Shown: positions 34,076-64,000 of the stretch, piece after piece
Numbering within the stretch: position 1 is the stretch's first letter
How the letters are laid out: each line of letters opens with the position of its first letter
Origin: Bacillota bacterium
GTDB lineage: Bacteria; Bacillota; JAAYKD01
Length of the DNA: 64,000 bases
Assembly (NCBI GenBank): GCA_963666425.2
Contig: OY762825.2
Span: forward strand, 2,784,001-2,848,000
Direction of reading: 5' to 3'
The notes under the pieces: model-generated
What the model was told of the DNA's origin: nothing
The model's input: the letters and a program-made list of their open reading frames with translations, nothing else
Database searches by the model: none
Position numbers and translations under genes: made by a program

Positions 34076-34113
34076 CGCGTCTTCGATCAGGCTCGGCGTT
34101 TTTTAGCCAACCT

Positions 34114-34303: not shown

Positions 34304-35157
34304 ATGGATAGATATTTTGAGATAAAGAAACGCTTATTAAGTATTTGTATTAGCGATGACAACGTTTGTGCAGTAATTGCCATTGGTTCGTCTGTCAGAA
34401 ATTATTCAAGGCAGATGAGTATTCCGATATGGATTTGATTCTTGCGTGTAAAAACCCAGATGAATGGCTTTTTGGCGAACAGTCTGCTAAACTCGGAAAG
34501 ATCAAAATATCGTTTGTCGAACCAACACTCGGTGGAGGGTTGGAGCGAAGAATATTATTTGACGGTTCACTTGATGTTGACCTAATTGTATTTACTCCCG
34601 AACAGCTTGAAACAGCAATAATAAACGGAGTTGCCTCCGAAGTTATGAACCGAGGATATTCCGTGCTATATGACAATATTGGTATTACTGAAATCATTGA
34701 TGACAATGTTGAGATATGTGTTCCTCATGCTGTTATGACCGAAAACGAGTTTATTAATATGGTAGGTGATTTCTGGTTTCATACCATATGGTCATCGAAG
34801 AAAATACTTCGTGGGGAGTTATGGGCAGCAAAAATGTGCATTGACTCATATTTAAAGAACTATCTTCTGAAAATTATCGAACTATACGAAACTTCTTCTA
34901 AACAAAGCGATGTATGGCACAACGGTAGATTTCTTGAAAAATGGGCAGGAGAAGAAATAATTGAAGCGCTTGGTGCGTGTTTTGCTCACTATGAAAAAGA
35001 AGATATTGTTTCAGCACTTATAAACACGGCAATGCTTTTTGGTAAAATTGCTCGCAATGCAGCAGAACTATGCTGTTACGTTTATCCAGCTGAGTCTGAA
35101 GATTATGCCTGCTCGCTTTTGGAAGAGTATTTTCATCATACTGTAAATATCGTCTAG
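34304..35157 (+). pseudogene. Aminoglycoside 6-adenylyltransferase-like nucleotidyltransferase (AadK/AadE family), frameshifted near 34405
   Basis: ATG at 34304 gives MDRYFEIK...AVIAIGSSVR. ADEYSDMDL, KKILRGELW and VWHNGRFLEKWA continue in another frame. Confidence 0.75.
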
Positions 35158-35159
35158 CA

Positions 35160-35295
35160 ATGTTCCAGGGGGACGGGGGTGTTGGCACAGATTTTCGGTA
35201 GCCTGGTTATGCCGAAAATCGAAAACACCGTCAGCATCAAACCCGCAATTTGGCTAAATATGTCTTAGCAAGAAGATCAGGAACATTTAAACATG
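35160..35295 (+). repeat. G-rich boundary motif copy 2 plus extension
   Basis: Same 31-mer, beginning 3 nt after the preceding stop; direct repeat of 33940-34075. Confidence 0.9.
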
Positions 35296-35311
35296 CAAGC
35301 AGAGTAAAAAA

Positions 35312-41853: not shown

Positions 41854-44800
41854 ATGCCCGACTATGATTTCCAAAATTTACTTGAACCAATGGAGTTTCA
41901 AGATTTAGTTTGTGATATTGTCCAACTGCGAGACAGTATTTTTTTAGAAACTTATAGGGAAGGCAGAGATTCGGGTATTGACGGTTCATATACTGACAAT
42001 ACCAAAAAGATAATTGTTCAGGCTAAACGTTATCAACAGGATTTTAAAAAACTATACTATGATTTGCAGCATATTGAGTTACCTAAAGTAATAAAATTGA
42101 AACCTGATCGATATATCCTGGGCGTTTCATTGGATTTTGAACCTGAGCAAAAAGAGAAAATCGTAAGTCTTTTTGAGGGGTATATTACTAATACTCGTGA
42201 TATTCTAAGTAGAAAGGATATAAATCGTCTTCTACGGGAACCAGCATATAAACGAATCGTGCTTGCATATACGAAACTCTGGATACCCAATCTTCCTGTA
42301 TTTGAAAAAACACTAAAAGAATCTGTTAATCGGGCTATCTACAAAGAGTCAGCAGAGGAACTTAAAGAAGCTCTTAGAACATCGAAGGTATTCGTCCAAA
42401 CGAGAATTTATCGCAAGGCATTACATGCGTGGTCCAGGAATAATGTAATTATAATCTCAGGGGAGCCTGGTGTAGGAAAGACAACAATGGCCTACCTTCT
42501 GGCATTGGCGTATTTACAACCAGATAATTTGGAAGGGTTTATTTGGGCGAACTCACTTAACGATGTATATACTTTGTGGGAAGAAGAGCAAAAACAAGTT
42601 ATAATATTGGATGATTTTTGGGGAAGTGTCTTTAATGATGACTATACACGAAGAAATGATGAAAATCGATTGGATAAACTAATAAAACGTATTATAGAGC
42701 TGAATGGAAAAAAGCGTTTAGTTCTCACGACGAGAGAATATATTCTTCAACAAGGTTTATTTAGACATCCTGCACTAAAAGAAACATTGGATCGATTTGC
42801 GCTAATTTGTACAATGGACGATTATGGAGAAGATGAGAAGGCTAGTATTTTGTTTCGCCATCTCTATGCATCAAATCTTGAATATGAATATGTTGCTTAC
42901 TTGTTTCGTAATTGTGATTGGATTATAAAACATGACAATTATAACCCCCGGGTATTAGCTATTTTTCTGGACAAGGGGCTCGATAAAGAATATTCTCCGC
43001 AGGAATATCTTAAGAAATTACGCAACTATTTTGATAGCCCTGGTTCTTTCTGGAAATCAATCTTTATTGATTTATCTCGAGAAGCGCAGATTGTAGCGAT
43101 CCTATTGTTAATTTCGTCGACACCTATGAGTTTTTCAGATATGAATCGCTGTTATGAAAAATATATGCATTGTAATCCTTATCAAACAACAGTAAAAAAC
43201 TTAAGTAACATTCTGATAGAACTTGAAAAAACGCTGATTAAATCATTTAGTAATTTAGGAAAAGAAGAAATTCTATTAAAATTCAGCTTTCCAGCTGTAC
43301 AGGATTTTCTATATCAATACATTGAAGAAAATAGTGAGCAATGTATTCCGCTGATTTTACAATGCTGTACTTTCTATAACCAATTGCAATTTCTTTTTGA
43401 GCATCAATCATCGAAATGCAGTAACAGTGTTTTGAATCTTATAGTGGAGCAATGCATTTTACATTATCAAGATTATGGTGATAGTTACCTCGATAACGAT
43501 GGCAGTTGGAATTGGGATATCGATATATTTGAGAGATATAGGCATGGATATCTTGACAGGTTTTTCCATTTGGTTAACTGTTGCGTACCTGATAGGCATC
43601 CTATGCTTTTTCGTTTTTTAGATACAGAAATAAAGGAATATTGCTTAACAATGGGCGATGGGGATATGGTGGACCAATATACAGATCTTCATAATTTACC
43701 AGACATCATTGTTCGATGTATAAAAAAAGGAATGAGTTTCAATGGCAAAGATATTATCAGCAAGTATTATGAAGAAGCTTTCAGCGCTTTACATTACCTA
43801 GCAATGGAAGAATTTCGAGAAGTGTTTCCAGAAGAGTATGGTGTATTCTATGAAACATATTATCCACAGGTAAAAAAAAGTATAAGAAGTATTATCCTTT
43901 CTGAGTTAGATTTCCTTGAAGAGTATTCGATGGACTTCGAAATGGATATATTGATTGATTCCATACCAGAAATTCTTGAAAAATTCGATTTGCGTTATAC
44001 AAAGGGATTCGGTCAGAAAATACTAGACTTATGCGGCAGAAAACCGATCGTTTTTTTTGATAAAAAAGCATATAAGTATGAAAATCCATCTGATGATGAA
44101 GTTGAACAAGAAGAACGGGAAATCGGCGCTGTTAAAGAAGATGCTGAGAACTGGCTTTTTGGGCAAAACGAAACATATTTGGATGATGATCAGATTACTG
44201 AAATAATCGCTAAAAGTAACCTTAATTCGGAACTGAAAACAGAATTAGTAAGAGTAGTTGATACTAGTATTCCACATTACATCTATGATTTTCTGCAGAT
44301 AAAAAAATCCAGTAAAGTACTGATTACAGCATTATACGATCCAGAGAATAATATTCTCAAATCGGAAAGCAGCCTTTATTTAATAGCATTATGGCAAATG
44401 AGCCATGGTGATCAAGAATTAATGAAAAGACTTATAAGTTTTTGTTCTGAAAACTTTACCTTGTTCATGTATCGAGAAGAACCCGTGCTGCGCACAAATC
44501 AATTTTTATCAAGTGATGTATATACACGTTATTTGAAATGTGATGCTGAATTTTGTAAAGTTATTAATGAAAATTTCATTGCACGAGATGAACAATGGAT
44601 ACGATTTCTTAATATACCCATATTCATTTTCTGTTATGTCTTTACTATGATTATGGGGCGTGAAGATAGAGAAACAGAAGAATATTATCGGAATATATGG
44701 GGTGAAAAATTTAACAAACTTAAGCAAATATTATGGTGTGATCAGAAGAATTATTACAATGTTTATTTTGCTGATATCGGGATATACAATTTTAAAAGGT

Positions 44801-45291
44801 ATGAGTGGGAAGGGTGCATGTATAGGGTTTTTGAAGAGTTGCACCCAAATCATTTTAACCGGTTCTATGTAGAACCTATGTTGAAGAGTTATCTGGATGA
44901 ACTAGGTAATGGGAATGATGATAGTAAAGTACTAAAACATATATCACTTTGTAGAGTTGAGATTGAATATACTTATGAAGGTATTCTTGGAACTACGAGT
45001 TACCAGGTTCATGATGGTTTGTCCATGATTGAACATTTATCAATTGCCGAAGATTGGAATGTATTCTCAAATTCGATAAAGATGAGCAGATTAAAAAAAC
45101 TTCAAAAAGATGAAACAGTTTGCCGAGAAGCTAATGGTAAATGGAGTATACTATTATATAAAATTGAGGATGTTATACTGTTAAAAGAACTTGGGATTTA
45201 TAATAGTGTATTAAAGTTTATAAATGATGTTAAAAGTACATACTCGAATTTTTTGGAAGCAAACTATTCGCAAATAAAAAAGTTCAAATAA
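41854..45291 (+). CDS. Mrr-like PD-(D/E)xK nuclease fused to a STAND (nSTAND3-like) NTPase and a long C-terminal helical region; putative antiphage protein
   Basis: EFQDLVCD..GRDSGIDG..IIVQAKRY; GEPGVGKTT Walker A; ILDDFWG Walker B; VLTTREYI; YNPRV. Confidence 0.8.
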   Translation: MPDYDFQNLLEPMEFQDLVCDIVQLRDSIFLETYREGRDSGIDGSYTDNTKKIIVQAKRYQQDFKKLYYDLQHIELPKVIKLKPDRYILGVSLDFEPEQKEKIVSLFEGYITNTRDILSRKDINRLLREPAYKRIVLAYTKLWIPNLPVFEKTLKESVNRAIYKESAEELKEALRTSKVFVQTRIYRKALHAWSRNNVIIISGEPGVGKTTMAYLLALAYLQPDNLEGFIWANSLNDVYTLWEEEQKQVIILDDFWGSVFNDDYTRRNDENRLDKLIKRIIELNGKKRLVLTTREYILQQGLFRHPALKETLDRFALICTMDDYGEDEKASILFRHLYASNLEYEYVAYLFRNCDWIIKHDNYNPRVLAIFLDKGLDKEYSPQEYLKKLRNYFDSPGSFWKSIFIDLSREAQIVAILLLISSTPMSFSDMNRCYEKYMHCNPYQTTVKNLSNILIELEKTLIKSFSNLGKEEILLKFSFPAVQDFLYQYIEENSEQCIPLILQCCTFYNQLQFLFEHQSSKCSNSVLNLIVEQCILHYQDYGDSYLDNDGSWNWDIDIFERYRHGYLDRFFHLVNCCVPDRHPMLFRFLDTEIKEYCLTMGDGDMVDQYTDLHNLPDIIVRCIKKGMSFNGKDIISKYYEEAFSALHYLAMEEFREVFPEEYGVFYETYYPQVKKSIRSIILSELDFLEEYSMDFEMDILIDSIPEILEKFDLRYTKGFGQKILDLCGRKPIVFFDKKAYKYENPSDDEVEQEEREIGAVKEDAENWLFGQNETYLDDDQITEIIAKSNLNSELKTELVRVVDTSIPHYIYDFLQIKKSSKVLITALYDPENNILKSESSLYLIALWQMSHGDQELMKRLISFCSENFTLFMYREEPVLRTNQFLSSDVYTRYLKCDAEFCKVINENFIARDEQWIRFLNIPIFIFCYVFTMIMGREDRETEEYYRNIWGEKFNKLKQILWCDQKNYYNVYFADIGIYNFKRYEWEGCMYRVFEELHPNHFNRFYVEPMLKSYLDELGNGNDDSKVLKHISLCRVEIEYTYEGILGTTSYQVHDGLSMIEHLSIAEDWNVFSNSIKMSRLKKLQKDETVCREANGKWSILLYKIEDVILLKELGIYNSVLKFINDVKSTYSNFLEANYSQIKKFK

Positions 45292-45311: not shown

Positions 45312-47055
45312 TGTTTGCAAGATTGGGGATTATATCGATATTTATGACATGACTAGAGCGGTGGAAGATGGAACAACGGTTAAGATCTATTATGAAAGCA
45401 GAATTGCGAAACTGGAACTGCCGGAGGAACTGAAACCCAAAGTAGATAAAGAATACGATGAGATCACCGAATATCAGGAATACAGCCAAAAAGAAAAATT
45501 GAAGAGCAAATGGGCCAGGCTGGAAGCAATTGTAGGTGCGCGCGAACGAATCAAGCAGATTGCCAAGGACATTGTTGAGCATTTTGAAAAACGAGATCAG
45601 GCACAGGAATATGAAGGCGGCAAAGCGATGATTGTTGCCATGAGCCGAAGGATTGCAATTGATCTCTACAAGGAAATTGTGGTATTGCGTCCAAACTGGC
45701 ACAGTGATGATTTGCAGGCAGGGAAAATTAAAGTCGTCATGACAGGAGCATCTTCCGATCCGGCTGAATGGCAGAAGTTTATTGGCACAAAGGCAAGCCG
45801 CGAAGCATTGGCAAAACGGATGAAAGACAAAAATGAGGAGTTGAAACTTGTCATTGTGCGAGACATGTGGCTGACCGGTTTTGATGTACCTACTCTGCAT
45901 ACCATGTATCTGGATAAACCGATGCAAGGGCATAATCTGATGCAGGCGATTGCCAGAGTCAACCGCGTATTCAAAGACAAACAAGGCGGCTTGATTGTTG
46001 ACTATATCGGTATTGCTGAGAAATTGAAAGAAGCACTTGCGCAATATACTGAAAATGATAAGAAAACAGCCGGTATTGATACGGAAGTCGCAGCAGAGGT
46101 TCTGCTTGAAAAATATGATCTGGTCAAAGAATTGCTGTATGGGCATGATTATAGCAAATTCTTCACGGGTAAACCGAGTGAGAAAATGTATGCAATTGTG
46201 GAAACCATGGATTATATAATCGGTCTTCGTGATCATAGAAAGAACGACTACATTCAGCTGGTAACCGAAATGACCAGAGCCTATTCTCTCTGTGCAACAA
46301 CGGAAGTGGCAGAAAGCCTGAATGTTGAGGTTGGTTTCCATAAAGCGGTGAAGGCAAGCCTGATTAAAATAGCCAGTGATGACAGCAAGAAAAAAACAAC
46401 TTCACAACTTGACAGCGAATTGAACCAGTTGATTTCAAGATCGATTTCTTCGAATGAAGTAATTGACATCTTGGGTTCGGTTGGACTTTCCAAGCCGAAT
46501 ATCGCCATCCTTTCGGATGAGTTCCTGGAAGAAGTAAAAGGGATGAAGCAGAAGAACCTTGCGGTTGAACTCCTGAACAGATTACTGAAAGGCAGTATCA
46601 AGACTTTTTCCAGACGCAATCTTGTGCAGTCAAAAAAATCCTCGGAGCTATTGGAAAATGCGCTCAGAAAATATCAGAACCGCGCCATTGAGACAACGCA
46701 AGTGATCATGGAGCTCATTGAACTGGCGAAACAAATTAGTAAAGCAGCAAAGCGCGGAGAGAGTTCAAGCTTAACACCGGATGAATTGGCCTTTTATGAT
46801 GCCCTGGCGGATAATCAATCCGCAAAAGAAATTATGGGTGAAGAGATCTTGAAGCAGATTGCGCGCGATCTGACACGGTCCATAAAAAATAATATTAGTG
46901 TGGACTGGGCAATTCGTGATAGTGTTCAGGCAAAGATGAAAATGACGATTAAACGTATGTTAAAGAAATATGGCTATCCGCCCGATAAGACGGCGAAAGC
47001 GATTGACACTGTAATGGAACAGACCAAATTAATGTGCCAAAACGAGGACAGGTAA
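45312..47055 (+). pseudogene. hsdR: 3' half of a type I restriction endonuclease HsdR (DUF3387-type C-terminus), 5'-truncated
   Basis: [37 protein letters not shown] and KKYGYPP are present; the nuclease domain and Walker A/B are absent. Confidence 0.88.
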
Positions 47056-48672: not shown

Positions 48673-51063
48673 ATGATTACAAAAATCAAAGCAATTAGTA
48701 ATTTTGCAGTTTTCGACAATTTTGCCTGGGATACCAGCGTCCTTGATAAAAACGGACAACCTCTGGTGTTTAGTAAACTCAATATTTTATATGGCCGTAA
48801 CTATTCTGGAAAGACAACTTTATCTAGGATTTTTAGAGCATTGGAAACGCACCTACTACCTGAAAAATATGATAGTCCGCAGTTTGAGGTTGTAACTGAA
48901 AACGGTCAAAGTATAAAGCAAGATAATCTTGCTTCGATTAATTTAAGCGTTCGTGTTTTTAACGAGGATTTTATCCGTGCAAACCTGCGTTTTCTTATTG
49001 ACCCTGATAGTGAAATTGCGCCTTTTGCAATACTCGGTGCTGACAATGCTGAAACTGAAAAAGCTATTAAAGATTTAGAAGTTGAGATTGGTTCTGATAT
49101 AGATACGCATGAAACCGGATTATACAAAAAGCTGAAAGAATTAAAAGCGGCAGCACAAAAGGCGCAGAAAGACTATTCTACTGATTTTAATAGTTTGGAA
49201 TCCAAGTTATCTGATAAAGCGACGAATAAGCGTACGGGAATAAAGTACAATGTCAACAGATATGGTGACCAGAACTATAACATTGCAAAAATAAAACAAG
49301 AAATCGCCGTGGTGACTGCTTCAACATATACTCATCTTTCTGCCGATAAAAAGGTCGAATACGAGAGCACAATTTTAGAGCAAGAAAAATCGGACATTCA
49401 ATCTTTAAGCATTCCATCGCTATTATTAAATAGTTATTGTCAAAGAGCATCTGTATTACTTTCGCAACAAATCGGAGCATCAAATAAAATTCCAGAATTA
49501 TTGCTAAATGTAGCATTAAACGATTGGGTAAAACAAGGCGCAAATATCCTTAAGGGACAAAAAATATGTGCTTTTTGTGGTAGTCCGATTACCGATGAGC
49601 GATGGGTAGTTATTCATGCGCACTTTGATGAAGAATCAAAGAAGCTCGAAAGCGAAATAGATGATCTTGTTTCACAGATAAATTTGGAAAAGGCACTATT
49701 GCACAAACCTTTACAAATTGATAAAAGCACGTTTTATACAAAATATTGCCAAAAAATAGATGATTATTTAAAAACATGGGAGGAGGCGGTTCAACAATAT
49801 TGTCAATCGCTTGATAAAATCTTTGAACGACTACAAGATCGTAAATCTCAGATTACTGTTCCGATCCAGTTTATATTTCCAGAAGATAATTCAGCAATAC
49901 TGAGAAAAGCAATTAATGAATTTAATGCAATTATTAAGGAGAACAATGAGTTCTCAAGTAAATTGGCTTCAGCAAAAACAGTAGCTTACAAAGCGTTAAG
50001 ATTGCAAGAAGTTGCTGATTATTGTGCCACAATTGAATATGAAAAAATAATTAAACAAATATCCATTTTGGAAAGCAAGCATGACAAAGCCAACGAGACT
50101 GCCAGTACGGAAGAAGAGACGCTTAGTATTAAAAAGCAGAAATTGCAGGAAAAACGCCGTCAACTGAATGATGAAGAAGAAGGTGCACGGCGTGTTAATA
50201 AATATCTTAACGACTATTTCGGACATAATTTCGTTACATTAGAGGCCGAAAAAGTAACCGAAGGTGAAAAGCGTATTAAGTTTAAGATTATGCGTAACGG
50301 GAAACCAGCGTACAATCTGAGTGGCGGAGAATGCAGTCTTATTTCGTTCTGCTATTTCATGGCAAAACTTGATGATATAAACACGCAAGGAACTAAGCCA
50401 ATAATTTGGATTGATGACCCAATTTCGAGTTTAGATGGAAATCATATTTACTTTATGTATAGCTTGATAGTTGCACGAATTGCGAAAACGGGAAACTTTG
50501 AACAATTATTCATTTCAACGCATAACCTTGATTTCTTGAAATATTTGAAACGACTAAATTCGTATCAACCTAATACAAAAAATGAAATGAAGGCTTTATC
50601 TAAGCAGTACTTTCTCATTGAACGAGAAGGTAAACTCTCAAAGCTTCTCAAAATGCCGAATTATCTTGCGAGGAATGCCACCGAGTTTAATTACTTATTT
50701 TCAATCATCTACAAATGCTCAAAATGCGAAAATGTTACAGATGATAATTATGATATGCTATATGGTTTTGGAAATAGCGCAAGAAAATTCTTGGAAATGT
50801 TGTTGTACTTTCAATTCCCTGATGATTCAGAGGAACTGTTGCCGAAGCTGAAACGCTTTTTTAAAGACGAAGAAATACCCCCTATCCTTATGGATAGAAT
50901 GTTTAATGAAGATTCTCATGGTTCATCGCCAGAGCGATCATTAAAAGTGGATGTTGACCCTGAGACAATACCAGTTGCGAAGAAAGTCATTGAAAAACTT
51001 CAAGAAAATAAGGCTCAATTCAATGCTTTACTAAATAGCATTGGAGAAACACCATCGCCATAA
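48673..51063 (+). CDS. RloC-like protein (AAA_13 ABC-ATPase, zinc hook, C-terminal HEPN-like domain)
   Basis: GRNYSGKTT, coiled coil with CAFC hook, LSGGE, IDDPISSLD, STHN, and C-terminal GNSARKFLE...RMFNEDSH. Confidence 0.8.
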   Translation: MITKIKAISNFAVFDNFAWDTSVLDKNGQPLVFSKLNILYGRNYSGKTTLSRIFRALETHLLPEKYDSPQFEVVTENGQSIKQDNLASINLSVRVFNEDFIRANLRFLIDPDSEIAPFAILGADNAETEKAIKDLEVEIGSDIDTHETGLYKKLKELKAAAQKAQKDYSTDFNSLESKLSDKATNKRTGIKYNVNRYGDQNYNIAKIKQEIAVVTASTYTHLSADKKVEYESTILEQEKSDIQSLSIPSLLLNSYCQRASVLLSQQIGASNKIPELLLNVALNDWVKQGANILKGQKICAFCGSPITDERWVVIHAHFDEESKKLESEIDDLVSQINLEKALLHKPLQIDKSTFYTKYCQKIDDYLKTWEEAVQQYCQSLDKIFERLQDRKSQITVPIQFIFPEDNSAILRKAINEFNAIIKENNEFSSKLASAKTVAYKALRLQEVADYCATIEYEKIIKQISILESKHDKANETASTEEETLSIKKQKLQEKRRQLNDEEEGARRVNKYLNDYFGHNFVTLEAEKVTEGEKRIKFKIMRNGKPAYNLSGGECSLISFCYFMAKLDDINTQGTKPIIWIDDPISSLDGNHIYFMYSLIVARIAKTGNFEQLFISTHNLDFLKYLKRLNSYQPNTKNEMKALSKQYFLIEREGKLSKLLKMPNYLARNATEFNYLFSIIYKCSKCENVTDDNYDMLYGFGNSARKFLEMLLYFQFPDDSEELLPKLKRFFKDEEIPPILMDRMFNEDSHGSSPERSLKVDVDPETIPVAKKVIEKLQENKAQFNALLNSIGETPSP

Positions 51064-51447
51064 CTATATAAGCGAATGCGCTGTTACCTCAGAGATTGAT
51101 GAAAATGTCCTTTTACTTTTTACTGAGATGGTGTAGATTACATCTTTAGAACTCCGCACCCTCGGTTAGCTCAAACTGCTCCAGTATACTCAGAGTTTTA
51201 TTTTGATTAGCTATAAGAATGAAGTCAATATTCATATGCTTCTTAAGAAGGGATCTCAACTGAAAACATGTAGAATTTTCCAATAAAATGCGGTATACTG
51301 CGAATAATTGATAATAAGCAATAGTACCTTAGGTCATTCAAACATGAGAAGATAAGAGATGGGCGTAGCCAAATGTTATGCCTATTGGTAAGACGACTAA
51401 ACACTAAATTATGACACGGTTAAATTTCAAAGGAGGCTCTAAAAAAA

Positions 51448-52332
51448 GTGAATAGCAGCATGAATATTCAAAAACCTAATGATATAGATCCCCTGAAAAA
51501 AAACGAACGTGATCGGTCTAATTTCGTCCGAGAATTGGTACAATCCCAACTCAATAAACCAGTTCAAGCGTTCGCCACGCACATAGTGCCACCACCTAAA
51601 CGTATTGTACAATTCTGGGATGACCTTGATCGATTGCCCCTGGATGTTAAGGAGTGTATGGCTTCATGGAAAATACTCGAACAATCGGGATTCGAACTCC
51701 AGGTTTTTGATGAAAACTCAACGAGGGAATTTATACGAGTTCATTTGGGTTCAAGATATGAAAAAGCTTTTGACAAGTGCTATCACCCCTCTATGAAGTC
51801 AGATTATTTCCGTTACAGCTACATTTATATAATGGGTGGCTTTTATATTGACGCAGACGACATATATCATGGCGAGAGAATAGATAACCTCTTCATTGAT
51901 GGAAGGTTGAAACTTCAACCGTTCTGCTACGACATTGTAACTGCCCAAATGGTTCCACCTTCAGTTTTTGTCAGTATAGGGGAAGTCAACCTTAACTGGA
52001 TTCATTATTTCAATACCACGCCTATGATAGCAGGTCCCAATCACCCTATTATAGAGCGTGCACTACGGAACGCGACGGAAGCCCTTGAACAGGAATTATA
52101 CGGAGAATTGCCTGAAGTCCAAGCAACCACAGGCCCAGGTAATCTCACAAGGTCTATATTTGAGGTAGTCAGCGAGGGATGTTGCTCTGAGGAAACGATA
52201 ATGGTTGTGCACGATTGGGAGAAAATTTCTACGAGTAAATGGCCACTCAGTTATCGAAATGATAAGAGAAACTGGAGACTGTCAAATCAGCAAACCTATC
52301 AAGTGTCACGGGATACGGAGGAGGAGAAATGA
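51448..52332 (+). CDS. DXD glycosyltransferase (GT32/Och1-like)
   Basis: PKRIVQFW, KSDYFRY, GGFYIDADD and TTGPG motifs. Confidence 0.82.
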   Translation: MNSSMNIQKPNDIDPLKKNERDRSNFVRELVQSQLNKPVQAFATHIVPPPKRIVQFWDDLDRLPLDVKECMASWKILEQSGFELQVFDENSTREFIRVHLGSRYEKAFDKCYHPSMKSDYFRYSYIYIMGGFYIDADDIYHGERIDNLFIDGRLKLQPFCYDIVTAQMVPPSVFVSIGEVNLNWIHYFNTTPMIAGPNHPIIERALRNATEALEQELYGELPEVQATTGPGNLTRSIFEVVSEGCCSEETIMVVHDWEKISTSKWPLSYRNDKRNWRLSNQQTYQVSRDTEEEK

Positions 52333-54518
52333 ACCTAACGCCCCCATCGAAAGCAATAACCACAAGTATTTTCCGATTCTGGTTGACTCTTCGACGGTTA
52401 CTACCTAATCGGAAGTGTAAAACATTTTCTGTCCAAAGTTCGAGTAAATTCCCTGCAATTGATAAAATCTATGTCATCAACCTTGATCGTGAACAGGCGC
52501 GCTGGTCTAGAATGAAGCAAGAGCTTAAGTACATTTTGGACTCATCGGGAGCTGAAATACTAAAACTCACTGAGCGCTATAGTGCGGTCGATGCCAAACA
52601 ATTCTCCTATGAGCGAGAGAAGGATGACGAAATTGATCCGTATTATACGCTTAGTGATCAACTTTTTGTAGAACCCCAACCCTTAGCTATCCCAACCCAT
52701 CTCGAGTTAAACACCCCAATTCGGATGAGTCGACCGGAGATTGCAGTCGCTCAGTCACATATCAATGTCTGGAAAAAGATTGCAACAGGTAATAATGAGC
52801 AAGTACTTATTCTAGAAGACGATACATGGTTTCATTCTAGTTTTGCTAAACAAATGGATCAGGCATGGACGGAAATTGTAGAAGAAAATAATGTGAAAGA
52901 CGAATTCGATGTTCTTTATGTATCGTATCTTGAAGTAAAACACGGTGCTCCCAAAAGTTTCCTATCGAATAATCTATTCCGACCAGTGCGTGGACTCTGG
53001 CATATGTCCGGATATGTTCTATCACGAAAAGGTGCAGAAAAGCTTCTTCGCCTGCTTCCTTGTCGTGGTCCTATCGACCTTTGGATAAATCATCATTTCG
53101 AAGATTTAGATGTATTTGCAACAAAAAACTCACTTATAAGCCAACGACGTGATATAACATCATCAAATTCATATTCTATCCTCCCTGCACTCACTAAAAT
53201 TGGTGCAATTAATAGTGAAGGCGCATCCTTATTCAATATTCGCCCAATTGAGTATCCTGTGTTTGCCTTTGGTCCGGAAGGTTCCGGTCAAACATCGCTT
53301 GCGATGGCATTGTCTATGCTAGGATACAGATGCTGCAGTGATTTTGATAATTTACCCGCTTCTGAGATGGAACGGCTTCTTGCAGGAAAAAAAGATCGGG
53401 TTTTTAACGCGTACGTAAACATCGGATCTTTGAGGGCAAAGGTCAAGATACTCAAAAGTTGTTACCCCAAAGCCAAATTCATTATTACCGCTATGAACGA
53501 TACTACTGTAGATCACGCAGTCCATAGTCTTGAGGAGGATTTGAATGGTGCCGATATCGTTGTACTTCACTTAAATGAACTAAATAAGTGGAATGTCATT
53601 TGCCAACATCTTAGGAGTGCTCCGCCTACATGTTGTTTCCCGGTACTTAAGGACCTGAGTCAAAGACCAATTCTTGCTGAAATTACCAAACTAGATCATG
53701 TTAATGAATTAAAAATACCAAGACATGATAATTCACCATGGTTAGTTAAATCTCGGAGTTGGTGGAAAGGTATTAGTGTTGTCCAACAAAAAGATGAGCA
53801 GAGAGAAAATGAAATGTTAGTTAAGATCTCCGACCGTTTAGAACATCTTGACACTCACCGCTGGCTATTGAGGAGTGATACTTTTACGGACAATTTAGCG
53901 TTATTTTGTCCGACTAACGTTGAGTTCTGTCCAGGAATCGGGGCATTATTTTCAATTAAAAAGGAATCACTTGGCGTTCGAGACTATTCCGCTGCATCTC
54001 TGTGCAGTCAAGATCAATATTTGTTCGGTAAATTCGAAGCATCCATTCAAGCCTCAAATGTGCCTGGCGTTGTAACTGGAATGTTTTTGCATCGTAATTC
54101 ACCGAGACAAGAAATAGATATCGAGATTGCGGGTAATCACACAAATCGCATTTTAGTCAATGTTTTCTATAACCCAGGTGACGAAGGAGCGAATTTTGAT
54201 TATGGTTATAGAGGTTCGCCAACCTATATAGAGCTTGGGTTTGACGCATCTAAAGAATGTCATCGTTTTACAATTGAATGGAGTCCATGCGAGGTTCTAT
54301 GGTTAGTTGACGATAAGATAGTTCATAGACGTGGGATTTGGGATCCGACACCAATTCCGAATCTTCCAATGAAATTCCATATCAACAGTTGGCTAACTCG
54401 TTCGATTCAACTTGCTGGACGAATTAACGACAGACGGCTTCCTACAATGGCAATACTAGGTGGCATCACTTTGGAGGCAAATTTCGTTGTTGGTTCTTCC
54501 AGACCTGATGAACAATAA
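52329..54518 (+). CDS. Fusion of GT25 glycosyltransferase, sulfotransferase-like P-loop domain and GH16 glycoside hydrolase
   Basis: IYVINLDREQARW, SHINVW, ILEDD and GYVLSRKGA (GT25); FGPEGSGQTSLAMALSMLGY (sulfotransferase-like); GVVTGMF, EIDIE and IEWSP (GH16). Confidence 0.8.
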   Translation: MNLTPPSKAITTSIFRFWLTLRRLLPNRKCKTFSVQSSSKFPAIDKIYVINLDREQARWSRMKQELKYILDSSGAEILKLTERYSAVDAKQFSYEREKDDEIDPYYTLSDQLFVEPQPLAIPTHLELNTPIRMSRPEIAVAQSHINVWKKIATGNNEQVLILEDDTWFHSSFAKQMDQAWTEIVEENNVKDEFDVLYVSYLEVKHGAPKSFLSNNLFRPVRGLWHMSGYVLSRKGAEKLLRLLPCRGPIDLWINHHFEDLDVFATKNSLISQRRDITSSNSYSILPALTKIGAINSEGASLFNIRPIEYPVFAFGPEGSGQTSLAMALSMLGYRCCSDFDNLPASEMERLLAGKKDRVFNAYVNIGSLRAKVKILKSCYPKAKFIITAMNDTTVDHAVHSLEEDLNGADIVVLHLNELNKWNVICQHLRSAPPTCCFPVLKDLSQRPILAEITKLDHVNELKIPRHDNSPWLVKSRSWWKGISVVQQKDEQRENEMLVKISDRLEHLDTHRWLLRSDTFTDNLALFCPTNVEFCPGIGALFSIKKESLGVRDYSAASLCSQDQYLFGKFEASIQASNVPGVVTGMFLHRNSPRQEIDIEIAGNHTNRILVNVFYNPGDEGANFDYGYRGSPTYIELGFDASKECHRFTIEWSPCEVLWLVDDKIVHRRGIWDPTPIPNLPMKFHINSWLTRSIQLAGRINDRRLPTMAILGGITLEANFVVGSSRPDEQ

Positions 54519-54561
54519 ATACAAGATAGATAGAGAATATCAATTCAAGCGAGGTGGAATA

Positions 54562-56172
54562 ATGAAAATATTGTCATTCAATCCGGGTCATGACGGAGCA
54601 TTTGCTTATATTGAGGATGCACATTTAATTACTTCCATTGAAGCCGAAAAACACTCTCGTTATCGTTACTCACCGCTGTCTATTCCAGATATGTTTAGCA
54701 TTCTTGGCGAACTCAAAGAAGTTCCTGATGTGGTTTGTAGAAGTGGCTGGTGGCCGAGTGATGCGAATCAGTCTGAGCAGCGTCTTAATGCTGGATATCA
54801 TGGTGTCAGTTACAGTGACATAATCGTTGGAGAACAACGGCTTTTAGGGAAGACTCCTAGATACTTCTCATCTTCTCACGAACGTTCACATCTTCTCTGT
54901 GCATTTGGCATGTCGAATTTACCCAAAGGCACACCTTGTTATGCATTGCTTTGGGAAGGGGTAATCGGATCTTTTTACAAAATAGACGCTACGTTAAATT
55001 TGATTAAGCTTGCCGATGTCATGCCCGAACCTGGTCATCGTTATGCCCTTCTCTACGGTCTAGCAGATCCAACTTTTGACAAAAGAGTTGCTGAATTCTC
55101 AAGATTTTCTGATGCTGGAAAACTCATGGCTTTGGCTTCATTTTCTAAGCGGTCCAAGCCGTCGGATGAAGAGGAGAAAATAATCGCGTTTCTAATGCAG
55201 GACTGCCTGCACCTTAAGCCCAAGGAGTGTGAAATCCTAAAACATAGCAAACACTACAATGTAGGACTTGATGATCAAGAGTTTCGAAACTTCGCAGGTA
55301 TCGTCAGTAATAGAATATTCGATCGCTTTTATCAATATGCAGAGTCAAATATGACGAGAGGTATGCCGTTGTTGATTTCAGGAGGATGTGGATTAAACTG
55401 TGACTGGAACACTATGTGGAGGGAAACTAATTTTTTTTCAGAGGTGTTTGTACCACCAGTTGCCAATGATTCAGGATCGGCTATCGGAACAGCAATTGAT
55501 GCCCAATTCTATTTTACAGGAAATCCAAAGATAGATTGGAGTGTCTATTCTGGTCAAGAATTTATTACCAATGACGCGTTCGATATATCTTTGTTTGATA
55601 CATACGAAACGAATTACGCGATGATTGCTGACATGTTGGCTAACAATTTAATCATCAGCTGGGTTAATGGAAAATATGAAATAGGACCTCGTGCTTTGGG
55701 GAATCGTTCGATTCTTGCTTCCCCATTTCATGAAAAAACGAGAGTGCGACTAAATGAGATTAAACAGCGCGAACAGTTTCGACCAATAGCGCCTGTTTGC
55801 CTGGAGGAAGATGCCAAAAGATGGTTTGGCTGTAATCAGCCAAGTCCATTTATGCTATACACTCAGCTCGTTTCTACGGATGCACTAGCTGCGGTAACCC
55901 ATATCAATGGGACAGCACGCATTCAAACAGTGTCCTCGGCAAGTAACAACCACCTGTATAAACTACTTGTAGCATTCAAAGCGCGTACCGGTTACGGCGT
56001 TTTGTGTAATACCTCCCTGAATTTTAAGGGACGAGGATTTATAAACAGTATAGGGGATCTGTCTGCTTATACGATAGAGCGAAATTTAGATGGTTTTGTA
56101 ATTGAAGGCAAAGCCTATTTGTTGAAATCATCTCCTAATTACCAAGCGTACTTGAGCATACAAAGTCTATAG
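54562..56172 (+). CDS. O-carbamoyltransferase (NodU/CmcH/TobZ family)
   Basis: HDGA, HERSH, GKLMALA, GGCGLNC, NDSGSAIG, EIGPRALGNRS, REQFRPIAP and NTSLN motifs; GAGGTG RBS. Confidence 0.9.
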   Translation: MKILSFNPGHDGAFAYIEDAHLITSIEAEKHSRYRYSPLSIPDMFSILGELKEVPDVVCRSGWWPSDANQSEQRLNAGYHGVSYSDIIVGEQRLLGKTPRYFSSSHERSHLLCAFGMSNLPKGTPCYALLWEGVIGSFYKIDATLNLIKLADVMPEPGHRYALLYGLADPTFDKRVAEFSRFSDAGKLMALASFSKRSKPSDEEEKIIAFLMQDCLHLKPKECEILKHSKHYNVGLDDQEFRNFAGIVSNRIFDRFYQYAESNMTRGMPLLISGGCGLNCDWNTMWRETNFFSEVFVPPVANDSGSAIGTAIDAQFYFTGNPKIDWSVYSGQEFITNDAFDISLFDTYETNYAMIADMLANNLIISWVNGKYEIGPRALGNRSILASPFHEKTRVRLNEIKQREQFRPIAPVCLEEDAKRWFGCNQPSPFMLYTQLVSTDALAAVTHINGTARIQTVSSASNNHLYKLLVAFKARTGYGVLCNTSLNFKGRGFINSIGDLSAYTIERNLDGFVIEGKAYLLKSSPNYQAYLSIQSL

Positions 56173-56285
56173 CTGGGTAGATACGAATAATGTTGATATC
56201 CATACTGAAGATATTTTGAATAAATCGATTTTCCGCCAAGGGGGGTAGCAGAGTAACACGACCTCTTTTTTACTGCTACAAGCCG

Positions 56286-56316
56286 CATGGAGACTGCCGT
56301 GTTGATGTGTGCATAA
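56286..56316 (+). mobile_element. attR-like junction: displaced rlmD C-terminal codons
   Basis: C-ATG GAG ACT GCC GTG TTG ATG TGT GCA TAA is identical to the end of the rlmD copy at 62774-62804; upstream sequence is unrelated to rlmD. Confidence 0.7.
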
Positions 56317-56345
56317 GTGATTTTTTATGCAGTAAGGAGAAACAA

Positions 56346-56825
56346 ATGGAACAAATTTTTATGAGCTTTCTAAACACGGTTCCCGAACACTTAAGACCTT
56401 TCGTGAGCGAAATCGACGCTTATCTGCTAGACAAAAACTGCAAAAGAAGCATTAAGCCCGCGGCAAAAGGATACCTGGTTTCCTATGCGTTGCCGGTTTC
56501 AAAGAAAACGCTGCTCAATTTTGTATTTAGGAAAGGCTGTGTCAAGGCAAGAATTTATGCGACGCATGTAACAGAATATGAAGAACTGGTCAGTGGATTT
56601 CCCGAAGCAACAAAGAAAGAGATAGCGGCCGCCCTTGAATGCAAAAAGCTGACCGGACTGACCTGCAGCCCGACCTGCCCTGCCGGATATCAATTTGTGA
56701 TGGACGGTGTGGAATACAAGAAATGCCGCAGTATGGCTTTTCTTCCCATACTGAATGAGGAAAATAACCCTTTCATAAGAAAAATGATCGAAGCAGAAGT
56801 TTGTTGTTCAATGACGGACAGATAA
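56346..56825 (+). CDS. Hypothetical protein with Cys cluster, copy 1
   Basis: AAGGAG RBS; differences between copies are mostly synonymous; CKKLTGLTCSPTC...KKCR. Confidence 0.75.
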   Translation: MEQIFMSFLNTVPEHLRPFVSEIDAYLLDKNCKRSIKPAAKGYLVSYALPVSKKTLLNFVFRKGCVKARIYATHVTEYEELVSGFPEATKKEIAAALECKKLTGLTCSPTCPAGYQFVMDGVEYKKCRSMAFLPILNEENNPFIRKMIEAEVCCSMTDR

Positions 56826-56857
56826 ACCTTAATTTGGATTATGCCGAGGTGCAGAGA

Positions 56858-57406
56858 ATGGTTATTTACAGAGAGTTGACAGAGTGTGATATCCTTGATG
56901 CTGCCATGTTGAAAGCATCATGCTGGGATGAAGAAACTGCAGGCACATCAAGCGAAAAACCTGATATTGTTAAAGAGCATACTTCATTTGTTAAGTGGAT
57001 GAAGACAGCGGATGAAAATGCTGATGTCCGTTTGTTATATGGTGCTTTTGATGACGAAAAGATGGTTGGCACAGTTTTTGCCAGCTTTGTCGAGTCTAAA
57101 GATGCTCCCGAACACGGATTTGAGTTGAATGGACTCTGGGTGGATCAGGGGTATCGCCGTCGGGGGATAGCATTGACTTTGCTGAAAAAAGTATGCGAAG
57201 AGTTTAGAAAACTAGGAGCAAAGAAAATGATTGTCTACAATTATCACATTGCTCCGTCAAACAGTTTTTACCTTAAATTTGGGTGTAATGTCATCTCTAC
57301 GGAATATCAAACAAAAGATAGGCTGCAAACCGATATCATCGAAGGAAATATTGAAGATCTGATCACGAGATTATCCGTGTCGCTTCAGAAAGTGGTCTCG
57401 AGATAA
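56858..57406 (+). CDS. GNAT acetyltransferase, copy 1
   Basis: LWVDQGYRRRGIA and NSFYLKFG motifs. Confidence 0.85.
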   Translation: MVIYRELTECDILDAAMLKASCWDEETAGTSSEKPDIVKEHTSFVKWMKTADENADVRLLYGAFDDEKMVGTVFASFVESKDAPEHGFELNGLWVDQGYRRRGIALTLLKKVCEEFRKLGAKKMIVYNYHIAPSNSFYLKFGCNVISTEYQTKDRLQTDIIEGNIEDLITRLSVSLQKVVSR

Positions 57407-62558: not shown

Positions 62559-62588
62559 ATGTTCCAGGGGGACGGGGGTGTTGGCACG
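62559..62588 (+). repeat. G-rich boundary motif copy 4
   Basis: ATGTTCCAGGGGGACGGGGGTGTTGGCACG. Confidence 0.9.
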
Positions 62589-62667
62589 GAGTTGGATAAT
62601 CCAGTTTTACTGAGATCCCAAAACGCTTTATGTATCATATGCGCAACTTGATCAGATAAGTTACTTT

Positions 62668-62804
62668 TCAGCTGTAATCCGAACACCCTGATGCGCGAGG
62701 CTGCCTTTCTGCGTGAGCTGGGCTCTGAAGTGGTCATTGGTCAGGCAGTGGATAGGTTCCCCATGACAATGCACATGGAGACTGCCGTGTTGATGTGTGC
62801 ATAA
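62668..62804 (+). pseudogene. Degenerate copy of the rlmD 3' end
   Basis: SCNPNTLMREAAFLRELGSEVVIGQAVDRFPMTMHMETAVLMCA* versus [46 protein letters not shown] in rlmD. Confidence 0.92.
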
Positions 62805-62833
62805 GTGAATTTTTATGCATTAAGGAGAAACAA

Positions 62834-63313
62834 ATGGAACAGATTTTTATGAGCTTTCTAGACACGGTTCCCGAACACTTAAGACCATTCGTGAGCGAAA
62901 TCGACGCTTATCTGCTAGACAAAAACTGCAAAAGAAGCATTAAGCCCGCGGCAAAAGGATACCTGGTTTCCTATGCGTTGCCGGTTTCAAAGAAAACGCT
63001 GCTCAATTTCGTATTTAGGAAAGGCTGCGTGAAGGCAAGGATTTATGCGGCACATGTAACAGAATATGAGGACCTCGTCAGTGGATTTCCCGAAGCAACA
63101 AAGAAAGAGATAGCGGCCGCCCTTGAATGCAAAAAGTTGACCGGACTTACCTGCAGCCCGACCTGCCCTGCTGGATATACATTTGTAATGGACGGTGTGG
63201 AATACAAGAAATGTCGCAGTATGGCTTTTCTTCCCATACTGAATGAGGAAAATAACCCTTTCATAAGAAAAATGATCGAAGCAGAAGTTTGTTGTTCAAT
63301 GACGGATAGATAA
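62834..63313 (+). CDS. Hypothetical protein with Cys cluster, copy 2
   Basis: Near-identical to 56346-56825. Confidence 0.75.
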   Translation: MEQIFMSFLDTVPEHLRPFVSEIDAYLLDKNCKRSIKPAAKGYLVSYALPVSKKTLLNFVFRKGCVKARIYAAHVTEYEDLVSGFPEATKKEIAAALECKKLTGLTCSPTCPAGYTFVMDGVEYKKCRSMAFLPILNEENNPFIRKMIEAEVCCSMTDR

Positions 63314-63345
63314 ACCTTAATTTGGATTATGCCGAGGTGCAGAGA

Positions 63346-63894
63346 ATGGTTATTTACAGAGAGTTGACAGAGTGTGATATCCTTGATGCTGCCAGGTTGA
63401 AAGCATCATGCTGGGATGAAGAAACTGCAGGCACATCAAGCGAAAAACCTGATATTGTTAAAGAGCATACTTCATTTGTTAAGTGGATGAAGACAGCGGA
63501 TGAAAATGCTGATGTCCGTTTGTTATATGGTGCTTTTGATGACGAAAAGATGGTTGGCACAGTTTTTGCCAGCTTTGTCGAGTCTAAAGATGCTCCCGAA
63601 CACGGATTTGAGTTGAATGGACTCTGGGTGGATCAGGGGTATCGCCGTCGGGGGATAGCATTGACTTTGCTGAAAAAAGTATGCGAAGAGTTTAGAAAAC
63701 TAGGAGCAAAGAAAATGATTGTCTACAATTATCACATTGCTCCGTCAAACAGTTTTTACCTTAAATTTGGGTGTAATGTCATCTCTACGGAATATCAAAC
63801 AAAAGATAGGCTGCAAACCGATATCATCGAAGGAAATATTGAAGATCTGATCACGAGATTATCCGTGTCGCTTCAGAGAGTGGTCTTGAGATAA
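63346..63894 (+). CDS. GNAT acetyltransferase, copy 2
   Basis: Near-identical to 56858-57406. Confidence 0.85.
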   Translation: MVIYRELTECDILDAARLKASCWDEETAGTSSEKPDIVKEHTSFVKWMKTADENADVRLLYGAFDDEKMVGTVFASFVESKDAPEHGFELNGLWVDQGYRRRGIALTLLKKVCEEFRKLGAKKMIVYNYHIAPSNSFYLKFGCNVISTEYQTKDRLQTDIIEGNIEDLITRLSVSLQRVVLR

Positions 63895-63943
63895 TTGTTC
63901 CATCGAAAACAATGCGATAAGTCCAATTCGCCTGGCCATCAGT

Positions 63944-63973
63944 ATGTTCCAAGGGGACGGGGTGCTGGCACAG
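63944..63973 (+). repeat. G-rich boundary motif copy 5 (variant)
   Basis: ATGTTCCAAGGGGACGGGGTGCTGGCACAG. Confidence 0.85.
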
Positions 63974-64000
63974 ACTTGCTGTCACCCACTCAACTCAATT

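Follow-up and report, generated by a model that had tools for sequence, protein, structure and literature searches.

A horizontally mobile cassette encoding two glycosyltransferase domains, a fused GH16 domain and a predicted O-carbamoyltransferase, frequently found beside bacterial defence genes

Three tightly coupled genes, here called A, B and C, lie in a 64,000-nucleotide stretch of the genome of a Bacillota bacterium (GTDB lineage Bacteria; Bacillota; JAAYKD01; NCBI GenBank assembly GCA_963666425.2, contig OY762825.2, positions 2,784,001 to 2,848,000 of the forward strand), which is referred to below as the window and is numbered from its first letter. The triad is a self-contained, horizontally mobile cassette with its own short leader and no conserved partner gene, and it probably plays a part, so far undescribed, in the conflict of bacteria with their viruses. 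A preliminary description, made from the letters of the window alone, had already read the three genes as one operon; the open reading frames (ORFs) of the window, all on the plus strand, bear out the coordinates that it gave, together with the 4-bp overlap of A and B and the 43-bp gap between B and C. The features of the cassette are listed below, with lengths in amino acids (aa).

51354..51447, + strand: conserved leader, about 85-95 bp long, in which AGGAGG, a ribosome-binding site (RBS), precedes the GTG of gene A; blastn similarity to the closest copies begins here
51448..52332, + strand: gene A, 294 aa, GT32-like DXD glycosyltransferase (predicted)
52329..54518, + strand: gene B, 729 aa, three-domain fusion
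52461..53057, + strand: GT25 domain, B residues 45-243; PF01755, 67.3 bits against a cut-off of 24
53238..53678, + strand: sulfotransferase-like P-loop domain (putative), B residues ~304-450
53967..54404, + strand: GH16 domain, B residues 547-692; PF00722, 84.9 bits against a cut-off of 22
54562..56172, + strand: gene C, 536 aa, TobZ/NodU-type O-carbamoyltransferase (predicted)
56173..56219, + strand: short, conserved 3' tail of the cassette, where similarity to the closest copies stops

At the junction of A and B the letters ATGA hold both the stop codon of the former and the start codon of the latter, with an RBS (GAGGAG) inside the 3' end of A, and the ATG of gene C at 54562, which follows the stop of B by 43 bp, is preceded by the RBS GAGGTGG. 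A longer frame for gene C, starting at GTG 54460, was rejected, since the alignments with homologues begin at residue 1 of the 536-aa form. The outer limits of the unit emerge from DNA alignment (blastn) with two other copies: identity with a Bacillota metagenome-assembled genome (MAG; L003) is 93% from 51354 to 56219, and with a Desulfosporosinus MAG (L002) 91% from 51368 to 56201, the latter similarity beginning at GTTATGC, and the flanks of the window copy are unrelated to those of both. From these end points the mobile unit is therefore about 4.87 kb long (51354-56219) with about 90 bp of leader ahead of the three genes and about 30-47 bp of tail behind them. It is present once in the host genome, with a guanine-plus-cytosine (GC) content of 41.3% against 51.6% for the genome core. 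This host is a Clostridia-like Bacillota, with a LigA 65% identical to the LigA proteins of Eubacteriales MAGs. The promoter scan gave no significant sigma-70 match within the conserved leader, promoter-like sites being fewer than in shuffled sequences, and the terminator scan gave no terminator-like site after the stop of gene C. An integron gene cassette was also considered and was rejected for the window and the loci examined: there is no attC-like hairpin 3' of gene C (the 138 nt there are no more stably folded than shuffled sequence, z +1.17 and +0.62) and no integron integrase nearby, and nine recombinases adjoining other copies score at most 75.4 with the integron-integrase model, whose cut-off is 265. 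The left boundary GTTATGC agrees at six of seven positions with what we take to be the integron core site, and this likeness is regarded as chance.

The distribution of the cassette was followed through gene B, for which 2113 relatives were found at E<=0.001 among 8000 scored candidates; the 120 best of those listed share 66-100% identity across 77-100% of the length. In a collection of 185,579 species, with one genome per species, B relatives occur in 187 stretches, and the locus counts given here rest on the best 80 of these 187, with B protein identities of 53-91% and a spread over at least 15 phyla. By tblastn, gene A stands beside B in 78 of the 80 loci, both misses being cut by contig ends, and gene C is matched in 71; of the nine loci with no C match, five break off within or just after B, a sixth leaves only 1.6 kb for it, and the remaining three offer enough space yet have no C. 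When the 1157 ORFs of 81 loci were clustered all against all, only A, B and C proved to be conserved: the next commonest family in the flanks occurs in 7 loci, and the flanks all differ. The triad is thus conserved across taxa and its genes do co-occur, as the operon reading implied. On the tree of B proteins at least 28 changes of phylum are counted against a minimum of 14, the B of the window and those of two other Bacillota are nested with full support in a Bacteroidota clade, and near-identical copies link Bacillota with Verrucomicrobiota and Bacillota with Acidobacteriota. The GC content of the cassette in 54 loci ranges from 34.8 to 56.4%, compared with 31.0 to 64.2% in the flanks, the cassette being drawn partway toward its host. 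Some copies are in decay, with gene C split or truncated (L014, L025, L032, L052, L054 and L059) and, in L025 and L059, other genes inserted between A and B; errors in long-read MAGs may contribute to these decayed copies. A further locus (L017) has A and B fused in one ORF of 1030 aa, which was not used as a sign of a complex, the sequence being a MAG contig with a possible assembly error.

The operon had been described as sitting inside a defence island, and the genes beside the cassette were surveyed in 71 loci, taking up to three ORFs (at least 100 aa) on each side and scoring them with PADLOC at E<=1e-12; three very long ORFs were left out for size. The identical procedure was applied around MurB in 16 Clostridia-type genomes as a control. 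The counts were as follows.

Batch 1: PADLOC matches to 32 of 148 ORFs, in 17 of 28 loci
Batch 2: PADLOC matches to 27 of 149 ORFs, in 16 of 31 loci
Batch 3: PADLOC matches to 11 of 58 ORFs, in 5 of 12 loci
All cassette loci: PADLOC matches to 70 of 355 ORFs, in 38 of 71 loci
MurB control: PADLOC matches to 3 of 79 ORFs, in 3 of 16 loci

The cassette is thus enriched near defence genes (Fisher, p = 2e-4 for ORFs and p = 0.014 for loci), although the size of the enrichment is rough because the control is small (16 loci) and taxonomically narrow. The control matches are all generic (one DEDDh exonuclease and 'mad3' twice), and when loci with only generic matches (mad3, TniQ, group II intron reverse transcriptase, RtcR-like regulator, subtilase) are dropped, 32 of the 71 cassette loci are left against 0 of 16 (p = 3e-4). 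The commonest immediate neighbour, on either side of the cassette, is Gabija: GajA and GajB are both present in five loci (L039, L042, L058, L060 and L072), GajA alone in L009 and GajB alone in L037. This adjacency could reflect chance within defence islands or a preferred pairing. Further neighbours are Wadjet, Shedu, CBASS, SIR2-HerA, Bil, AbiE, Dsr2, OLD/PARIS-like ATPases and restriction-modification systems of type I, II and IIG; upstream of the window copy PADLOC finds PDC-S73, an HsdR fragment and PDC-S06.

A Pfam scan of the flanks, covering 209 ORFs from 42 loci (the 31 loci of batch 2 were scanned with PADLOC only), adds integrases, IS110 and ISL3 transposases, TniQ, TraG and a group II intron. 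None of the 209 ORFs belongs to Wzx/Wzy/Wza-type, glycan ABC exporter, polymerase, sugar-nucleotide or further glycosyltransferase families, and none to polyketide, nonribosomal peptide synthetase (NRPS) or aminoglycoside families; nor is there a flippase, polymerase, exporter or sugar-nucleotide gene among the window neighbours, in agreement with the preliminary description. The cassette therefore does not sit mainly in capsule, exopolysaccharide (EPS) or antibiotic clusters in these 42 loci. The explanation in which the genes are a stray piece of a lipopolysaccharide (LPS), capsule or EPS locus and make ordinary surface polysaccharide is hardly credible: only database family names speak for it, and it is largely refuted by the empty flank scan and by the window neighbours, none of which falls in a glycan-locus family, as well as by the behaviour of the cassette as a foreign insert with variable flanks.

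The elements that carry the cassette include conjugative IncC and IncFII plasmids, and some of them hold A and B without C, namely, as distant copies, a Klebsiella michiganensis IncFII plasmid (48% identity), Aliarcobacter plasmids (43%) and an integrative and conjugative element (ICE) of E. coli, a form that 5 of 5426 complete genomes carry. C is likewise absent from four loci (Nitrospirota, Nitrospinota, Actinomycetota) that make up an internal clade, with just 1.6 kb after B in one of them (L074). Altogether the presence or absence of C requires three changes on the B tree, and the gene is missing in two clades. Since C is dispensable there, A and B, and not carbamoylation, form the core of the system and C is an add-on. 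In two C-less Nitrospirota copies a 267-aa ORF, with no Pfam or PADLOC match, lies directly upstream of A (L068 8324-9124, L079 2487-3287) and may be an alternative accessory gene.

A short (~200 aa) Xer-like tyrosine recombinase recurs beside the cassette and may move it in some hosts. Two such genes, 93% identical and 200 aa long, bracket the IncFII copy (L082 6687-7289 and 11346-11948), which lies about 5 kb from psiB/psiA, and a related one, 60% identical, is found just upstream of the cassette in Thiobacillus denitrificans (L062 7918-8532). An ArdC family gene and, upstream, a decayed integrase (L099 14317-14718) adjoin the E. coli ICE copy. These associations raise the possibility that the cassette benefits its carrier, modifying plasmid, ICE or prophage DNA or a host factor so that the element escapes restriction or is more stably kept, and the recombinases, ArdC and psiB/psiA would all fit such a role. 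Glycosyl- and carbamoyl-modifications of phage DNA serve against restriction. We nevertheless consider this anti-defence explanation quite improbable, given that most copies are chromosomal and stand by defence genes rather than in leading regions, that no base-hydroxymethylating enzyme occurs among the 209 flank ORFs scanned with Pfam, and that the cassette is almost absent from phage genomes. In particular, 50,697 phage records gave no match and 2.9 million viral contigs gave three loci. This near absence from virus collections argues against a phage-side role and is no proof of host defence.

In one of the viral loci (L117) the gene order is that of a P2-like prophage, with capsid, scaffold, terminase, portal and a DNA methyltransferase (7906-8724) followed by A, B and C. 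P2-like phages have an anti-phage hotspot between gpA and the portal gene gpQ, next to cos, according to two reports (PMC9122126; PMC13586616). The L117 record stops before the far side, so the claim is limited to the cassette lying on the hotspot side of the portal gene.

The proteins themselves appear to be enzymes in working order: the motifs checked in A, in the GT25 and GH16 domains of B and in C are strictly conserved, so that all four look active. No transmembrane segment is evident in any of the three, since no 19-residue hydropathy window exceeds 1.36, which agrees with the earlier reading. Gene A is predicted, from its sequence and its model, to be a cytoplasmic GT-A glycosyltransferase of the GT32-like, DXD type. 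It passes the GT32/Gly_transf_sug model of Pfam (PF04488, 31.4 bits against a cut-off of 23), has a second match to PF05704 (capsular polysaccharide synthesis) and carries the motif IDADD at residues 134-138, with two Asp-rich positions invariant in 62 homologues. With its AlphaFold2 model (mean predicted local distance difference test, pLDDT, 88), Foldseek retrieved from the PDB Och1 (9n3s, 2.9e-9), YeGT (8ovs, 2e-8), PaToxG (4mix, 1.4e-7) and SetA (8x4j, 3e-6); the fold neighbours after Och1 are thus protein-glycosylating toxins (YeGT, PaTox, SetA), together with glycogenin, and giant-virus and some phage glycosyltransferases are better matches than Och1. Och1, the toxins and glycogenin have the GT-A DXD fold in common with A, which contains the sugar-binding region of PF04488. 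However, the template modelling (TM) scores are just 0.42-0.53 at 12-17% identity, and A has no toxin delivery or targeting domain, unlike PaTox, YeGT and SetA, so that its likeness to Och1 and the toxins is one of fold and not of role.

Gene B had been read as a sugar-adding domain joined to a hydrolase with an intact EIDIE motif, and this reading holds: PF01755 and PF00722 are both above cut-off, and EIDIE stands at residues 595-599. In the GT25 domain the motif LEDD occupies residues 162-165, its EDD aligning onto FEDD of procollagen galactosyltransferase 1 (COLGALT1), and none of E163, D164 and D165 varies among 76 B proteins, distant two-gene forms included. Bacterial lipooligosaccharide (LOS) GT25 enzymes and COLGALT1 share with B the GT25 Pfam domain and the conserved EDD; the similarity to COLGALT1 amounts to only about 30 bits, and the GT25 of B differs from these enzymes in being fused to two further domains, in a mobile cassette and without LOS/LPS context.

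The GH16 domain, whose true start is probably near residue 490, is of the beta-jelly-roll, lichenase/transglycosylase type, and its residues E595, D597 and E599 are likewise invariant in 76 of 76 B proteins. Its best PDB and NCBIfam sequence matches are in the lichenase/GH16 group, EIDIEIAG lying over EIDIEFLG of the lichenase 3i4i (5.5e-13), with BglS at 1.5e-24 and ExoK at 2.3e-10 in NCBIfam; it stays below the equivalog cut-offs of both models (86.8 against 300 for BglS, 40.4 against 350 for ExoK), which points to a family member and not an orthologue of BglS or ExoK. Lichenases (3i4i, 1gbg, BglS), ExoK, XTH and Crf1 belong with B to the same fold family, with an EIDIE strand without beta-bulge. 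Unlike the lichenases, B has no evident secretion signal, and its GH16 domain follows a glycosyltransferase in one fused polypeptide. Two Rhizobium loci have another GH16 gene, stand-alone and also with a SKN1/KRE6 match, right after the cassette on the opposite strand (L075 7917-8858, L078 13968-14858). The combination of a glycosyltransferase with a glycoside-hydrolase-type domain is known from the cyclic beta-glucan synthases (NdvB, GT2 plus GH17; Cgs), in which, as presumably in B, a single cytoplasmic polypeptide not only adds sugars but also cleaves or transfers the chain. The families differ, GT25 and GH16 in B against GT2/GH17 or GT84/GH94, and the cyclic beta-glucan synthases are large membrane proteins with export partners, whereas B is soluble and mobile.

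Between these two domains lies a third, which the preliminary description had called sulfotransferase-like. PF17784 (Sulfotransfer_4) matches it weakly in every one of 74 homologues, at E 1.2e-7 in the best case; the window copy reaches 16.2 bits, under the cut-off of 22.8. In the model, whose core has a pLDDT of 84-94, comparison by VIA-align ranks sulfotransferases first (Cpz8, 9kf2, Z 10.3; 5tiv from Schistosoma, Z 9.5; 3-OST-5, Z 8.1; Stf1, Z 8.1) and kinases behind them (Z <=7.5). Sequence and model thus weakly but consistently suggest a sulfotransferase-like domain. Foldseek, which led from gene A to Och1 and the toxins, gave for this domain no match at E<=0.001. In sulfotransferases the loop that binds the 5'-phosphosulfate contains a basic residue, and there is a catalytic base; the corresponding loop GPEGSG (315-320) has no Lys or Arg in the window copy and is variable at positions 316-318, and the domain has about 145 residues against at least 200 in solved sulfotransferases. 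Three of its cysteines (C335, C336 and C425) are invariant in the 76 B proteins. It may be a relic or a binder of another ligand. A search of the ESM Atlas returned only clusters of the query protein's own family, and prediction of a complex of A with B residues 30-729 gave 0.39, 0.00 and 0.00 in three runs, which says nothing either way.

Gene C is, as its sequence indicates, an O-carbamoyltransferase of the TobZ/NodU family, with a Kae1-like N domain and a YrdC-like C domain. Both Pfam models are above cut-off (PF16861, 182.7 bits against 27; PF02543, 69.9 against 24), the solved structures 7xb6 (PDB, 1.8e-44), GdmN, NovN and TobZ are matched, and PHROG 1601 ('Nol-like carbamoyltransferase') is matched over the full length at 1.6e-77. 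The best NCBIfam model is NodU (NF041651), with 252.8 against an equivalog cut-off of 1000, which is not reached. Invariant in 58 homologues are H10, D11, H106, H110, D303, GPRALGNR (375-382), K401, R403, E404, R407, P408 and NTSLN (483-487), and the C-terminal motifs align with those of 7xb6 and GdmN. The HxxxH motif with Asp is presumably the metal site, and the C-terminal motifs are presumably those that form the carbamoyl adenylate, roles which we take over from the TobZ literature (Parthier et al., 2012). Gene C shares HxxxH plus Asp, GPRALGNRS, KxRE..RP..AP and NTS(L/F)N with TobZ, NodU, GdmN and NovN; it differs in its divergent N domain, only residues ~240-520 aligning to solved structures, and in standing outside antibiotic or nod clusters. 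The precedent cited in the preliminary description, carbamoylation of hydroxymethylcytosine by phages, is confirmed by PMC8670742, in which a phage TobZ-family enzyme yields 5-carbamoyloxymethylcytosine and carbamoylates 5-hydroxymethylcytosine (5hmC) in DNA and RNA. According to the same paper the phage DNA-carbamoylating enzymes are accompanied by a thymidylate-synthase-like hydroxymethylase; in contrast to this 5hmC pathway, the cassette has no such partner in its flanks (PF00303, 0 of the 209 ORFs scanned with Pfam).

The kinship of gene C gives weight to an explanation by small-molecule chemistry, in which the transferases would build, the GH16 domain would transglycosylate or cyclise and C would carbamoylate a soluble glycoside or short oligosaccharide, possibly cyclic or branched, the product being an antibiotic, signal or protectant and the cassette spreading as a self-sufficient useful trait. 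All solved relatives of C (GdmN, NovN, TobZ) carbamoylate natural products, and its closest NCBIfam model, NodU, recalls the decoration of Nod factors, just as the fusion in B recalls the cyclic beta-glucan synthases. The kinship of the GH16 domain with glucanases and transglycosylases (lichenases, XTH, Crf1), the caprazamycin sulfotransferase Cpz8 as the top fold match of the middle domain and the second GH16 in Rhizobium point the same way, and three genes without a sensor or effector resemble a biosynthetic operon. However, no exporter, regulator, precursor-supply or resistance gene is conserved alongside, polyketide, NRPS and aminoglycoside families are absent from the scanned flanks, a defence neighbourhood and a prophage position are unexpected for a metabolite pathway, and C is dispensable in two clades. 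We hold this explanation to be unlikely.

The names of the transferases lead to another explanation, that of envelope masking. By the name of their Pfam family, the GT25 enzymes of bacteria act as LOS/LPS core transferases; homologues of B bear the JGI name 'GR25 family glycosyltransferase involved in LPS biosynthesis', and gene A matches the capsular family PF05704. Prophage-encoded glycosylation of wall teichoic acid or O-antigen is known to alter receptors. The enzymes could accordingly modify a lipid- or nucleotide-linked precursor on the cytoplasmic face, to be exported by host flippases, and so change a phage or conjugation receptor; this would be exclusion at the surface rather than an intracellular immune mechanism, and carriage on prophages, ICEs and plasmids fits superinfection or entry exclusion. 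A conserved basic, amphipathic stretch of about 30 residues at the N-terminus of B could touch the membrane. This explanation is distinctly unlikely, considering that a 53-91%-identical cassette is found in Bacillota, Bacteroidota, Acidobacteriota, Planctomycetota and Actinomycetota, whose envelopes are so unlike that masking would need a universal acceptor, that no membrane protein, flippase or undecaprenyl-phosphate transferase is in the cassette or conserved beside it, and that a cytoplasmic glycoside hydrolase has no obvious role in it.

Each enzyme comes from a known family, and the whole matches no described defence, modification or biosynthetic system; NCBI names gene B 'family 16 glycosylhydrolase' only. 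In PADLOC-DB 2.0.0 no family matches A, B or C at E<=0.001, and full-text searches, with subscription journals and bioRxiv supplements outside their scope, found no paper on the cassette. Within seven supplementary files of PMC9122126 none of five family names occurs, so that under those names the supplements list no such cassette for the P2/P4 hotspots of E. coli. With the systems of defence islands and P2 hotspots (PADLOC; Rousset et al., 2022, PMC9122126) it shares the genomic habitat and sporadic distribution, as well as horizontal spread, a compact operon and occasional decay; unlike the defence families in PADLOC, it is represented there by no model. The proposal of a candidate undescribed defence or modification system accordingly stands as a candidate, the cassette being conserved, absent from PADLOC and the literature searched, and adjacent to defence genes. 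We know of no defence system that uses glycosyl transfer, GH16 or carbamoyl chemistry.

On balance we tentatively read the cassette as a conflict system, directed against phages or mobile elements, which would mark or unmark a macromolecule of the invader or of the host with a short, often carbamoylated glycan, the GH16 domain serving as eraser or transglycosylase; we rate this at a little less than an even chance. Its portability across very different cells suggests an acceptor common to all bacteria or introduced by the invader, and its nearest characterised relatives make macromolecular acceptors plausible, precedents being the toxin and glycogenin fold neighbours of A, COLGALT1, which acts on a protein side chain, and the phage TobZ-family enzymes. 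Under this scheme the GT25 domain would attach a hexose, in beta linkage, to a hydroxyl group of the acceptor, be it universal in bacteria or borne by the invader, such as a hydroxymethyl-pyrimidine or already glycosylated base of phage DNA, or a protein side chain. Gene A would add a second sugar, and gene C would carbamoylate an OH of the sugar or of the hydroxymethyl group with carbamoyl phosphate and ATP. The fused GH16 domain would cut or transfer the beta-linked glycan, either erasing marks so that self stays unmodified or, as a transglycosylase, passing the finished glycan on. The outcome would be to block or unmask a molecule of the invader, or to inactivate a host factor in the course of infection.

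Several points weigh against a conflict role. The function is assigned wholly by guilt by association, and the triad contains no nuclease, protease, pore or NTPase sensor, the usual parts of defence systems, nor the hydroxymethylase companion reported for the phage DNA-carbamoylation pathway. No PADLOC match occurs within three ORFs in 33 of the 71 loci, some copies (L012, L071 and L073) stand among housekeeping or transport genes, and the control is one gene in 16 loci of Clostridia only. Many of the loci are MAG contigs, in which binning errors can inflate the apparent phylum jumps; such errors could explain some of the jumps and not the whole pattern. Finally, proximity to ArdC in the ICE and to psiB/psiA in the IncFII plasmid fits a benefit to the element, or anti-defence, equally well.

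Around the window copy, three genes upstream of the cassette, all on the plus strand, are related to defence:

41854..45291, + strand: Mrr-nSTAND3 NTPase; PF20720 and PF04471; PADLOC PDC-S73, 7.8e-103
45349..47055, + strand: type I HsdR fragment, N-terminal half missing, covering only positions 470-1024 of the 1029 of the REase_I profile
48673..51063, + strand: RloC/PrrC-like AAA_13 ATPase; PF13166, 1.9e-132; PADLOC PDC-S06, 7.7e-276, and PrrC, 4.6e-16 (weak)

The first encodes 1145 aa, with an Mrr-type nuclease N-terminus and an nSTAND3 NTPase, and is a candidate single-gene STAND-type defence system. The second is probably a remnant, and neither HsdM nor HsdS was seen among the window ORFs scanned. 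The third, the RloC-like gene that the preliminary description had noticed upstream of the operon, is indeed there; it lies outside the cassette and is not kept beside it in other loci. An attachment (att) junction had been placed downstream, and this is not borne out: the window has no tRNA gene, the ORFs scanned include no integrase, and low GC persists past the window to the contig end, about 62 kb further. What lies downstream of the triad is a duplicated gene pair with copies of a genome-wide repeat, and the pair may be what was read as the junction. A 300-nt direct repeat, 95% identical, starts at 56278 and 62766, and the gene pair itself is duplicated 6.5 kb apart (56307-57406 and 62795-63894), comprising a 172-aa protein with a weak DUF3788 match and a GNAT acetyltransferase; between the two pairs are a CAAX-protease-like gene, a UvrD/GajB-like helicase and a 200-aa ORF, the UvrD-type helicase gene being 3 kb downstream of the cassette.

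The repeat, of up to 137 nt, stands directly 3' of several genes (33940-34076, 35160-35296, 62559-62700 and 63943-63977); it starts with ATGTTCC, and GGAACAT ends two full copies. Its 29-nt G-rich core has 97 copies in the genome (<=4 mismatches), clustered in few regions, some tandem at 33-35 nt apart and some in inverted pairs. As a boundary of the cassette it was rejected, for it folds no better than shuffles and its core occurs 97 times genome-wide; it looks like a REP-like (repetitive extragenic palindromic) element unrelated to the triad. Between two of its copies lies an ORF of 263 aa (34366-35157) with a match to the streptomycin adenylyltransferase family (PF04439, 3.5e-20).

Returning to the reading of the cassette as a conflict system, it is possible, though rather doubtful, that it is the first immune or counter-immune module that writes and erases glycans inside the cell, the transferases and C decorating a macromolecule of the invader and the GH16 domain removing or transferring the sugar. 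If so, hydroxymethylated or glycosylated phage DNA would be the most attractive target, or else a phage or translation protein, and how the infection ends would depend on modification state rather than on cleavage. Since A and B alone persist in two clades, the transferase/hydrolase pair would be the smallest working unit, and carbamoylation would lock the mark so that it became irreversible. Glycosyl transfer, glycoside cleavage and O-carbamoylation would then be chemistry new to bacterial immunity. The portability of the cassette from Bacillota to Acidobacteriota implies a target that is universal or borne by the invader and would make testing in laboratory strains easy. Even if the cassette is not a defence system, it represents a very widespread family with a conserved, fused glycosyltransferase/hydrolase architecture, whose carriers include clinical plasmids (IncC and IncFII) and an ICE of E. 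coli.

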